Below are positions 9,001 through 9,850 of a stretch of 48,765 nucleotides of DNA, in pieces. Source of the stretch: a virus (taxonomy: Duplodnaviria; Heunggongvirae; Uroviricota; Caudoviricetes). The first letter of the stretch is position 1, and each line of letters opens with the position of its first letter. The notes under the pieces are model-generated. The model had not been told where the DNA came from, made no database searches, and worked only from the letters and a program-made list of their open reading frames with translations. A program made the translations under genes and the position numbers. The stretch lies in IMG/VR virus record IMGVR_UViG_2877982868_000002; one strand, 5' to 3'.

Positions 9001-9684
9001 GCTCTGGGTAACGGTGAGTTAACGGTTAATGCCTCGGTGACCAACGCCGTTGGCAACACCGGTAGCGGCACGCGCGATATCACCATCGATGCCAGTCTGC
9101 CTGGCCTGCGGGTGGATACCGTCGCGGGTGATGATGTGGTCAATATCATCGAACACGCTCAGGCGCAGGTGATCACCGGCAGCAGCTCCGGCTTTGCCGC
9201 AGGCACGGCGTTGACGGTGGTGATTAACAACCAAACTTACGCCGCCACGGTGTTGGCGAACGGTAGCTGGAGCGTCGGCGTTCCTGCGACGGATGTCAGT
9301 AACTGGCCTGCGGGAACGCTGAATATTACCGTTAGCGGGGCGAACAGTGCCGGAACGCAAACCAGCATTACCCATCCGCTGACTGTTGATCTCACCGCCG
9401 TCGCCATCAGCATGAACAGCATCACCAGCGATGATGCGATTAACGCCGCCGAAAAAGGCGCGGCGTTAACGCTCTCCGGCAGCACGTCCGGCGTCGACGC
9501 GGGGCAAACCGTCACCGTCACCTTTGGCGGCAAAACCTACACCACCACGGTGGCGGCAAACGGTAGCTGGAGCACCACCGTTCCGGCGGCGGATTTGGCG
9601 GCCCTGCGTGATGGCGATGCCAGCGCCCAGGTGCGGGTGACTAACGTCAACGGCAACAGCGCCACAGCAACTGTAACCAGGTGA
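1..9684 (+). CDS. Giant Ig-like tandem-repeat surface adhesin (BapA-like large repetitive protein); 5' partial at window edge, frame ends at prophage junction
   Basis: One uninterrupted 3227-codon frame; ~30 tandem ~100-aa units with recurring motifs (INT[IV]A.DD[IV][IL]NAAE..., TVTVTLNG.TYT.TV.ADGSWSV.VPAAD); DNA-level superrepeats recur near nt 1, 1796, 5097, 8683; frame stops mid-repeat at TGA 9682-9684. Confidence 0.8.
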   Translation: MPASAVGALGEASYTVTANVTDSAGNSNSASHNVQVNTALPGVTINPVATDDIINAAESGNAQTISGQVTGAAAGDTVTVTLGGKTYTATVQGNLSWSVDVPAADIQAIGNGNLTVNASVTNGVGNTGSGSRDITIDANLPGLRVDTVAGDDVVNSIEHAQALVITGSSSGLAAGAALTVVINTVTYAATVLADGTWSVGVPAADVSNWPAGTVNITVSGTNTAGTTSTITHPVTVDLAAVAISINTVSGDDVINAAEKGADLTLSGSTSGVEVGQTVTVTFGGKTYTATVAGDGSWTTTVPAADLSVLRDGDATVQASVSTINGNTASATHAYSVDATAPTLAINTIATDDILNAAEAGNPLTISGSSTAEAGQTVTVTLNGVTYSGSVQADGSWSVSLPTADLSNLTASQYTVSASVSDKAGNPASANHGLAVDLTVPVLTINTVSGDDIINAAEHGQALVISGSSTGGEAGDVITVTLNSKTYTTMLDASGNWSVGVPAADVTALGSGPQTITAAITDAAGNSDDASRTVTVNLAAPTIGINTIATDDVIKATEKGADLQITGTSNQPAGTTITVTLNGQNYTATTDSNGNWSATVPASAVSALGEANYTVTANVTDTAGNSNSASHNVLVNSALPAVTINAVATDDIINAAESGNAQTISGQVTGAAQGDTVTVTLGGNTYTATVQSNLSWSVDVPAADIQALGNGDLTVNASVTNGVGNTGSGSRDITIDANLPGLRVDTVAGDDVINSIEHNQALVITGSSSGLTAGTALTVEINNVTYGATVLADGTWSLGVPAVDVSNWPAGTVNITVSGTNSAGTTSTITHPVTVDLAGVAITINTLSGDDVINAVEKGETLVVSGSTSGVEAGQTVTVTFGGKNYTTTVEANGSWTVNVPPADLAALPDGAGNVQASVSNINGNSAQADRAYSVDATAPLVTINTIASDDILNVSEAGAGITISGTTTAQAGQTLTVTLNNNTYQTTVLADGTWSVNVPAADLSGLTASSYTVTATVSDKAGNPASADHALVVDITAPDLTINTVAGDDIINAIEHGQALVVSGTSTGAAAGDVVTVTLNGKNYTTTLDASGNWSVGIPAADVTALATGSQTITASLSDRAGNSDSTTHDVTVDLSGPTLTINTVSGDDIINAAEIVVAQTISGQVTGTAVAGNTVIVTIGGNQYNATVQSDLSWSVSVPANVLQALGNGELTISASLTNSANNTGTATHDIVIDANLPGLRVDTVAGDDVINSIEHTQALVITGSSSGLAAGAALTVVINSVTYGATVLADGSWSVGVPVADVTNWPAGTVNIAVSGTNTAGTTTSISHPVTVDLAAVAITINTLSTDDVINAAEKGSDLQLSGTTSGVEAGQTITVIFGGKSYTTTVAADNTWGLTIPAVDVATLPDGAANVQASVSNVAGNSTQATHAYSVDATAPSVTINTIATDDILNAAEAGSALTISGTSTAEAGQTVTVTLNGVNYSGNVQADGSWSVSVPTGDLASLTASSYTVNASVSDKARNSASATHNLTVDLAAPVVTINTVAGDDIINATEHGQAQIISGSATGATTGNTVSVTIGTTTYTTVLDANGNWSIGVPASVISALAQGDVTITATVTDSAGNSGTASHTVTVALGAPVLAINTIAVDDIINAAEKGADLAITGTSNQPAGTQITVTLNGQNYTTTADASGNWSVTVPASRVSALGEATYTVTAAATDADGNSGSASHNVQVNTALPGVTINVVATDDIINAAEAGVEQTISGQVTGAAAGDTVTVTLGGATYTATVQANLSWSVDVPASALQELGNGELTISASVTNSVGNTGNGTREITIDANLPGLRVDTVAGDDVVNIIEHGQALVITGSSSGLAAGSNVTLTINGQTYVAAVLADGTWSVGVPAVDVSAWPAGSVTIAASGSTSAGNPVSVTHPVTVDLSAVAVSINAITADDVINAAEKGAALTLSGSTSGVEAGQTVTVTFGGKTYSATVAANGSWSTSVPAADMAALRDGDASAQASVSNVNGNSATTTHAYSVDASAPTVTINTIAGDDILNAAEAGAALTITGSSTAEAGQTVTVTLNGTNYTGTVQTDGSWSVSVPSADLSTLTASNYTVNAAVSDKAGNPASVNHNLTVDTSVPVVTINTVAGDDVINATEHAQAQIISGSATGAATGSTVTVTIGTNTFTTVLDASGNWSVGVPASVVSALANGTVTINASVTDAGGNSGSATHQVTVNTGLPTITFNAISGDNILNADEKGQPLTISGGSTGLATGAQVTVTLNGHNYSATTDASGNWTLTVPVSDLAALGQANYTVSASATSAAGNTASSQANLLVDSGLPDVTINTVAGDDIINAAEAGADQTISGVVTRAAAGDTVTVTLGGNTYTATVQSNLSWSVSVPTADLQALGNGDLTITASVTNANGNTGSGTRDITIDANLPGLRVDTVAGDDIVNSIEHGQALVITGGSSGLNAGAVLTVTINSVAYSATVQADGSWSVGIPAANVSAWPAGPLTVEVDGQSSANNPVSVSHPFTVDLTAVAISINTVASDDVINAAEKGTNLTLSGSTSGIESGQTVTVTFGGKTYTASVAANGSWSVNVPAADLATLPEGAANVQASVSSASGNSASATHAYSVDASAPTLTINTIASDDILNAAEAGSPLTISGTSTAETGQTVTVTLNGATYTGTVQADGSWSVSVPTSALGALNASNYTVSATVNDKAGNPGSASHNLAVDTTAPVLTINTVAGDDIINDAEHAQALVISGTSSGGEAGDVVSVVLNGKTYTTTLDASGNWSVGVPAADVTALGSGAQTITASVSDRAGNSDDASRTVTVSLSAPVISINTIAGDDVINATEKGSDLALSGTSDQPAGTAITVTLNGQNYSATTDASGNWSVTVPASAVSALGEATYSVTASVTNAQGNSSTASHNVQVNTALPGITINPVATDDIINASEAGSAQTISGQVTGAAAGSTVTVELGGKTYTATVQADLSWNVSVPAADWQALGNGELTVNASVTNAVGNTGSGTRDITIDASLPGLRVDTVAGDDVVNIIEHAQAQVITGSSSGFAAGTALTVVINNQTYAATVLANGSWSVGVPATDVSNWPAGTLNITVSGANSAGTQTSITHPLTVDLTAVAISMNSITSDDAINAAEKGAALTLSGSTSGVDAGQTVTVTFGGKTYTTTVAANGSWSTTVPAADLAALRDGDASAQVRVTNVNGNSATATVTR

Positions 9685-9850
9685 ATCATTTGATACCAAC
9701 GAGGGTTTTAGTGAAAGGAGGTGAAATCACCTGTAAGATACTGAAATAAAACAGGTGATGTCTGGATGAGCGCTTAAAGTCTATTTGATACCGATTGTGC
9801 AATAATTAATCGTTTATTCTAAAATCGGCAAAACTTTTGATACTGCGATC
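9685..9850. promoter_or_regulatory. Prophage left-end region with putative transposase-binding repeats
   Basis: Three direct copies of TTTGATAC(C/T) at ~9689, ~9785, ~9836; GGTGA/TCACC inverted repeats at 9719-9732 and 9727-9758. Confidence 0.4.

Follow-up and report, generated by a model that had tools for sequence, protein, structure and literature searches.

Base-exact junction between siiEA, a giant type I secretion adhesin gene of Escherichia coli O-island 28, and an Sp18-type Mu-like prophage

The 48,765 nucleotides of the virus record IMGVR_UViG_2877982868_000002 (Caudoviricetes), taken in full and as one strand and hereafter called the window, begin with a long open reading frame (ORF) for a repetitive giant adhesin and continue with the genes of a Mu-like prophage. 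This arrangement raises the question whether the adhesin gene is complete and simply followed by a prophage, or whether the phage transposed into the gene and cut it short. A first reading, made from the letters of the window without database searches (the sequence-only reading), had favored the latter. Our analysis led to the same answer: an Sp18-type Mu-like phage very probably transposed into siiEA of an Escherichia coli strain of the O157:H7 lineage and truncated the adhesin. The event is a further case of a known and ordinary type, and Mu-like insertions are well documented in O157:H7.

The junction between siiEA and the prophage

The + strand frame from 1 to 9684 was open for 3227 codons and ended ...NGNSATATVTR*, with the TGA at 9682-9684. 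The same motif in earlier repeat units reads on (...NGNSATTTHAYSVDASAPTVTINTIAGDD...), and the intact allele at the junction point reads ...NGNSATATHEYSVDSAAPTVTINTIASDN.... In a blastn comparison, window positions 1-9671 were 99.99% identical to siiEA of strain EDL933 (locus L001, 11102-20772; one mismatch and no gaps), and the match stopped at 9671. From 9672 (TGTAACCAGG...) the window aligned to prophage Sp18 of strain Sakai, starting at the very first base of Sp18, and an identical terminus was present at 11 further insertions of this phage, all with different flanks. As judged from these alignments, the break at 9671/9672 is a base-exact boundary and not a chance similarity. Because the phage terminus begins at 9672, the stop codon and the three codons before it are encoded by the phage. 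The sequence, its translation and the boundary alignments showed that the adhesin frame reads through the first 13 bases of the left end of the prophage (9672-9684, + strand): a phage T completes codon 3224 (ACT, still Thr), the V-T-R codons follow at 9673-9681, and the TGA ends the frame.

The part to the left of the junction (1-9671, + strand) is an internal part of siiEA, the BapA-related giant adhesin of O-island 28 that belongs to a type I secretion system (T1SS). In EDL933 the gene measures 20160 bp, or 6719 codons, and window positions 1-9671 correspond to its codons 1532-4755, which are the first 3224 codons of the second ORF of a gene that is split in O157:H7 (see below). The neighbors of siiEA in EDL933 are a TolC-family gene at one end and, at the other, a T1SS permease/ATPase gene with an HlyD-family gene. 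The order of the locus is the same in Sakai and in O55:H7 strain CB9615, where siiEA continues for ~5.9 kb past the point of the junction before the ATP-binding cassette (ABC) transporter gene and the HlyD-type gene are reached; the linkage to the T1SS transporter genes was also present in strain 380-94. The insertion point lies inside codon 4755, which leaves the window ORF short of 5896 bp of coding sequence.

The window ORF carried an array of Ca2+-stabilized Ig-like tandem repeats as expected for adhesins of the SiiEA/BapA type, with 32 stretches matching NF033510 Ca_tandemer (2823.7 bits), 32 stretches matching Ig_like_ice, and matches to Big_13 as well. The missing stretch of 1965 residues (EDL933, counted from the junction codon) contains more repeats and, at its very end, the type I secretion C-terminal target domain TIGR03661, which scored 32.9 bits against a cut-off of 17.6 bits over residues 1860-1962 of this downstream part. 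The T1SS target domain was thus confined to the portion of the allele that the window ORF lacks, and the window ORF is a truncated member of the SiiEA/BapA-type adhesins.

The sequence-only reading had placed a Mu-like prophage within a giant adhesin gene that it truncates, and with a base-exact junction and both partners identified this proposal held. Its two supporting observations were also confirmed, namely that the frame stops in the middle of a repeat at a motif which earlier repeats carry and continue, and that a C-terminal secretion region is absent from the window ORF. It had further suggested a BLASTN comparison with a prophage-free allele, and had conceded that an adhesin ending at 9684 in related genomes would speak against an insertion. 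The siiEA gene of EDL933 matches to 9671 and then continues for ~5.9 kb, as do the alleles of Sakai and CB9615. More than 1000 E. coli genomes have siiEA alleles that run on for these 5.9 kb, which code for 1964 further residues and the C-terminal type I secretion domain.

A megablast search with window positions 8900-10400 was run against 5426 complete E. coli genomes and found the gene in O157:H7, O55:H7 and related strains. The first 772 bases of the query (to 9671) were 99.9% identical to the gene annotated in RefSeq as 'siiEA: BapA-related adhesin SiiEA'. In 1094 of the 5426 genomes the match to the query stopped at 9671 or fell in paralogous repeats, and in none of the 5426 did a record cross the siiEA/phage junction. 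The exact 3227-residue product, with either V or M as its first residue, had no record in the assembly collection, and the exact pattern of the left junction gave 0 matches in viral, genome and metagenome contigs. The lone mismatch to EDL933 is at 9498 (C for A), which turns Glu into Asp within a GVEAGQ repeat motif. The best-matching complete genomes among those listed also differed by one base across the 772-bp stretch that contains 9498, which is consistent with a private single-nucleotide polymorphism of the strain from which the window came.

Strains differed in the length of siiEA in steps of 309 bp (20160, 20469 and 20778 bp in loci L001, L029 and L030, respectively). Steps of this size correspond to whole 103-residue repeat units, and they could reflect either real variation in repeat number or collapse of repeats during assembly.

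Termini, mobility and target duplication of the phage

The prophage occupies the window from its left terminus at 9672 to the stop codon of mom at 48765 (+ strand), with 97.6-99.0% identity to Sakai Sp18. Collinearity with Sp18 held to the last base of the window except for a replaced segment at 18121-18790. This segment is without counterpart in Sp18 and present in other copies of the phage (e.g. loci L014 and L022), and it appears to be a mosaic replacement of two small ORFs of the early region.

The mobility of the phage was evident from the variety of its flanks. Its left end, TGTAACCAGGTGAATCATTTGATACC... (TGTAACCAGG...), was identical in 12 loci including the window, with 12 different left flanks, and its right end, ...AAATCGCCGCGCTATA (...GCCGCGCTATA), was shared without change by 11 loci that differ in their right flanks. 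In an exact-protein look-up the transposase and a 679-residue late protein were found in 20 loci with 20 different gene contexts, which places the exact transposase at many unrelated chromosomal sites rather than at a single attachment site. Two groups of these loci, in draft genomes and at other chromosomal sites, matched the window at 99.99% identity across 13-14 kb. From its closest relatives the window differed at 10216 and 35770, both differences being synonymous. Exact copies of the phage proteins (transposase, 679-residue late protein and tape measure) were widespread (124 to 16606 index blocks), and a siiEA flank was seen at none of the 24 places shown for them.

The termini are further marked by a repeated motif. 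TTTGATACY occurred five times in the window, compared with 0.44 expected, and three of these matches, found by motif count as direct repeats on the + strand at 9689-9697, 9784-9792 and 9836-9844, lie within 175 bp of the left terminus. At the right end of relatives the motif recurs in inverted form (RGTATCAAA), with three copies in the terminal 80 bp. The repeats are likely transposase-binding sites, analogous to L1-L3 of Mu. The phage type thus has defined ends with inverted repeated motifs, of which the left end, with its TG at 9672, is in the window and the right-end repeats were seen in relatives.

The right terminus is just missed by the window. Position 1 matches the start annotated for ECs_0542 of Sakai, and the last base, 48765, is the end of the mom stop codon; the window was therefore cut at the borders of coding sequences. 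Relatives have their right end 128 bp beyond the mom stop, and the last ~128 bp of the prophage, with the right terminus, fall outside the window. The duplication generated by the phage was instead read from insertions with both flanks available, with the termini set by conservation. Exact 4-bp direct repeats were found at three such insertions, namely TAAA in sorM of Sakai, CACC in siiEA of 380-94 and ATCA in FDAARGOS_293, and the depositors of LC727881.1 annotate a 4-bp 'duplication due to insertion of Mu'. The junctions of the phage type (L003 at 2471 and 41225, L002/L028, L031 and L032) had ends 5'-TG...TA-3' and a 4-bp duplication. The 5-bp target duplication that the sequence-only reading expected does not apply to this phage type, and a 5-bp duplication in the window (GCAAC) was rejected on the three insertions with exact 4-bp repeats and the fourth that is so annotated. 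From the duplications in relatives, the duplication at the insertion in the window is predicted to be CAAC, with its left copy at 9668-9671 and its right copy beyond the window.

Since the terminus is base-exact and the same phage sits at many unrelated sites, integration by transposition is strongly indicated. DDE transposition would have taken place at codon positions 4755/4756 of the ancestral 6719-codon gene, after residue 3224 of the second ORF, joining the left terminus of the phage (TG at 9672) straight to the target so that the adhesin frame reads 13 phage bases and stops. The last third of siiEA and the two transporter genes would then be found ~39.2 kb away, behind the right end and after a second CAAC. 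The right junction is predicted to read ...AAATCGCCGCGCTATA (this end also as GCGCTATA and GGTATCAAAAAAATCGCCGCGCTATA), CAAC, and then GCACGAATACAGCGTCGATAGC (also GCACGAATAC and GCACGAATACAGCGTCGATAGCGCCGCGCC)..., the continuation of siiEA. The exact pattern of this predicted junction, allowing a spacer of 0-8 bases, gave 0 matches in viral, genome and metagenome contigs.

T1SS substrates are recognized through a C-terminal domain. The product of the window ORF keeps 3224 of the 5188 residues of the second ORF and lacks the last 1964 (EDL933 numbering), encoded by about the last third of the gene, including the export domain. Because this domain is lost, the product should remain in the cytoplasm and not be exported through the ABC transporter, the membrane fusion protein (MFP) and TolC. 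The 39-kb prophage would also part the 3' fragment and the ABC and MFP genes from an upstream promoter, and a polar effect on the transporter genes is likely.

The split adhesin gene and alternative explanations

The gene that the phage entered is itself split in the O157:H7 lineage. Codon 1462 of siiEA, located 208 bp upstream of the window start (L001 10892-10894; L029 5892-5894; L030 5592-5594), is TAG in EDL933 and Sakai compared with GAG in CB9615, where siiEA is a single ORF of 6925 codons. In RefSeq the EDL933 gene is flagged as a pseudogene with an 'internal stop', and Sakai is annotated with two ORFs, ECs_0541 and ECs_0542. The window opens where the frame first offers a start codon past the TAG of O157:H7, which implies that the gene in its strain carries the same split, the codon itself being 208 bp outside the window. 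The 3227-codon frame described by the sequence-only reading was therefore correct as an open frame, and it represents only the second ORF of a gene that was already divided. Niu et al. (2025) named the two ORFs of O-island 28 rtxA28 (z0609) and rtxB28 (z0615) (PMC12758282). The window ORF is the second of these (ECs0542 / z0615 'rtxB28'), with z0615 equated to ECs_0542 by gene order, and rtxA28 and rtxB28 appear to be the two halves of one ancestral gene of 6.7-6.9 thousand codons. The first half of siiEA in O157:H7 ends without a T1SS signal.

Several points weigh against the conclusion that the phage transposed into siiEA and thereby disabled the adhesin. The right junction of this copy lies beyond the window, and none was found in complete E. 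coli genomes, by exact-protein look-ups or with junction patterns in viral, genome and metagenome contigs. With the right junction unseen, a rearrangement beside the prophage or a join made in assembly is formally possible. Finally, the O157:H7 gene is already a pseudogene in RefSeq, and any added damage by the phage hinges on the second ORF being functional, as reported in PMC12758282.

The last point leads to the alternative that survives best, in which the insertion is real but functionally neutral as siiEA was already a dead pseudogene in O157:H7 owing to the TAG at codon 1462. The TAG in EDL933 and Sakai as opposed to GAG in CB9615, the 'internal stop' flagged in RefSeq, and the start of the window at the first in-frame start after this TAG, which implies the same split in its strain, all fit this view. 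It is countered by the finding that deletion in EDL933 of rtxA28, of rtxB28 or of any of the three transporter genes lowers both adherence to Caco-2 cells and colonization of mice (PMC12758282), and by the second ORF keeping its T1SS domain in intact O157:H7 alleles. The functionality of the second ORF is thus disputed by annotation and backed by experiment (PMC12758282), and we regard a neutral insertion as a serious possibility, though one we lean against.

A second insertion in the same gene bears on both the regularity of the event and the choice of target. In the O157:H7 strains 380-94 (NZ_CP104309.1) and RV06 (NZ_CP103864.1) a related Mu-like prophage also lies in siiEA. In 380-94 it is inserted 844 bp further downstream than in the window and in the same orientation (after L001 21616, compared with 20772); its left flank ends at L001 21616 and its right flank starts at 21613 (L002 ~7616/7617, L028). 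Past mom and the right end, this locus has the 4-bp duplication, the other 5055 bp of siiEA and both T1SS transporter genes, just the arrangement to be expected if the adhesin resumes behind a Mu-like insertion. The prophage of 380-94 and RV06 thus shares the target gene, the orientation and the termini with that of the window, and it likewise leaves the gene as 5' and 3' pseudogene fragments. In contrast, its immunity region is another one, and similarity falls off after ~90 bp of the left end. The insertion in 380-94 is an event independent of that in the window.

Two independent insertions lie no more than 844 bp apart and share their orientation, both in strains of the O157:H7 lineage. The siiEA gene and O-island 28 could be a recurrent rather than a random target, through a preference of the transposase and MuB for the region or through selection against the giant adhesin, such as might act while strains persist in cattle or are cultured. 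In that case, the insertions would be natural knock-outs of a recently proposed colonization factor. With siiEA making up ~0.37% of the chromosome and 232 complete genomes carrying this mom gene, one or two insertions in siiEA are about what random integration would give. We consider a recurrent target unlikely.

Returning to the insertion in the window, its left junction could be real while replicative transposition, by an adjacent deletion, an inversion or a second copy, has removed or displaced the 3' part of siiEA and perhaps the transporter genes. Transposable phages such as Mu are known to make adjacent deletions and inversions, and the unseen right junction leaves room for such an outcome. 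Yet wherever both ends could be read (Sakai, 380-94, FDAARGOS_293 and LC727881.1), a simple insertion with a 4-bp duplication was found, and a rearrangement of this kind seems improbable.

An assembly artefact, in which the repeat-rich siiEA was joined at 9671/9672 to a prophage located elsewhere in the genome, is very improbable. The highly repetitive nature of siiEA, with assembled lengths that differ by multiples of 309 bp, and the occurrence of the junction in no other genome would allow for it. Against it, the point of joining coincides to the base with the phage terminus, a match that transposition yields and that a mis-join would reach only by chance, and the flanking 9.7 kb are collinear with EDL933 without gaps. 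That the adhesin naturally ends at 9684, with the prophage merely downstream of a complete gene, can be dismissed, since the stop codon at 9682-9684 is all that speaks for it and is refuted as a natural end by its being phage DNA together with the three codons before it and part of a terminus shared with other insertions, by the end of the ORF within a repeat unit, and by the EDL933 alignment and all prophage-free alleles running on in frame for ~1964 more codons to the T1SS target domain (TIGR03661).

With transposition into siiEA retained as the preferred explanation, the practical interest lies in the target, as the T1SS/adhesin system of O-island 28 was reported in 2025 to be required for early adherence and colonization by EDL933. 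If that report holds, the strain of the window and 380-94 would be natural mutants without an exportable C-terminus of RtxB28 that may also under-express the transporter genes, and they could serve as ready test strains for the colonization claim. In annotation, the 3227-codon ORF should be labelled a pseudogene fragment truncated by a prophage and not an adhesin gene.

Prophage genes and comparison with known systems

The early region of the prophage starts with a divergent gene in the position of a repressor (9922-10527, - strand), with 201 codons from the first start and 176 amino acids as called in relatives. Its product had no Pfam or NCBIfam match, and its position suggests the repressor role. 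A small DNA-binding protein in the position of Ner (10643-10891, + strand; PF13693 HTH_35, E=2.5e-19) is followed on the same strand by the transposase, equivalent to the A protein (10893-12983; PF02316 Mu DNA-binding and PF09299 Mu transposase C-terminal), and by a MuB-type AAA+ activator of target DNA (13055-13987; PF09077 Phage-MuB_C, E=2.6e-25, and AAA_22). The DDE transposase with its Mu-type domains thus adjoins a MuB-type AAA+ protein, as in a Mu-like transposable phage. Further along the + strand are the Gam host-nuclease inhibitor (15340-15870; PF07352, E=1.1e-40) and the Mor activator of the middle operon (20190-20615; PF08765, E=2.8e-32).

Toward the right end, a tail-fibre segment (42500-43884) is bounded by inverted repeats of 182 nt (42500-42681 and 43703-43884) and followed by a Gin-type serine invertase with Resolvase and HTH_7 domains (43947-44507), the whole module spanning 42500-44507 on the + strand. 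In locus L024 this segment, which resembles the G segment, is turned the other way round, a sign that inversion is active in this phage family. Closest to the right end are com (47874-48074; PF10122 Zn_ribbon_Com) and mom (48028-48765; PF25680 Mom, E=4e-77), together covering 47874-48765 on the + strand and 100% identical to com/mom of Sakai Sp18. Based on the protein domains of the window and the Pfam families of near-identical gene sets in loci L004-L027, the accessory and late modules of a Mu-type phage were all present, comprising Gam, Mor, Gin with the invertible segment, Com/Mom, a Mu-type portal, gpF, gpT and tail genes. Between gin and mom, the 679-residue protein (44607-46646) had a SASA (sialate O-acetylesterase-like) domain and a DUF6645 domain and no NCBIfam match; it may be a cargo or receptor-modifying gene.

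Compared with the T1SS adhesin system of O-island 28 in EDL933 (tolC28-rtxA28-rtxB28-hlyB28-hlyD28), which is related to BapA and SiiE of Salmonella, the window ORF is 99.99% identical to its counterpart but is truncated once residue 3224 of the second ORF is reached, has no T1SS target domain at its C-terminus, and has the prophage between itself and the transporter genes. The prophage itself has 97.6-99.0% nucleotide identity and the same termini as Sakai Sp18, a Mu-like prophage, and relatives such as Phi804-3 of FRIK804, and it shares with Sp18 the gene order from repressor to mom and the invertible tail-fibre segment. The target is different, being siiEA in the window as opposed to sorM for Sp18 and the region between prpD and prpE for Phi804-3, in keeping with the strain-specific integration sites of O157:H7 Mu-like prophages (PMC7430833). 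Sp18 was described as intact and packaged (PMC2669165). Deposited records include copies of this phage type inserted into Shiga toxin (Stx) phages.

The comparison with Mu is one of shared organization. As in Mu, a transposase and a MuB-type ATPase, Gam, Mor, Gin with an invertible segment and com/mom at the right end are combined with near-random integration and gene disruption. In contrast to Mu, which has TG...CA ends and makes a 5-bp target duplication, this phage has 5'-TG...TA-3' ends and makes a duplication of 4 bp. No Mu record was among the phage records listed as megablast matches, and phmmer found no match of the transposase to solved MuA chains in the PDB, only weak ones (E about 1e-4) to the catalytic cores of retroviral (avian sarcoma virus) integrase. 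The transposase is thus a distant relative of MuA. By its similarity, its ends and its duplication length the phage falls outside the close relatives of Mu and D108, and it is Mu-like in organization only and not close to Mu itself.

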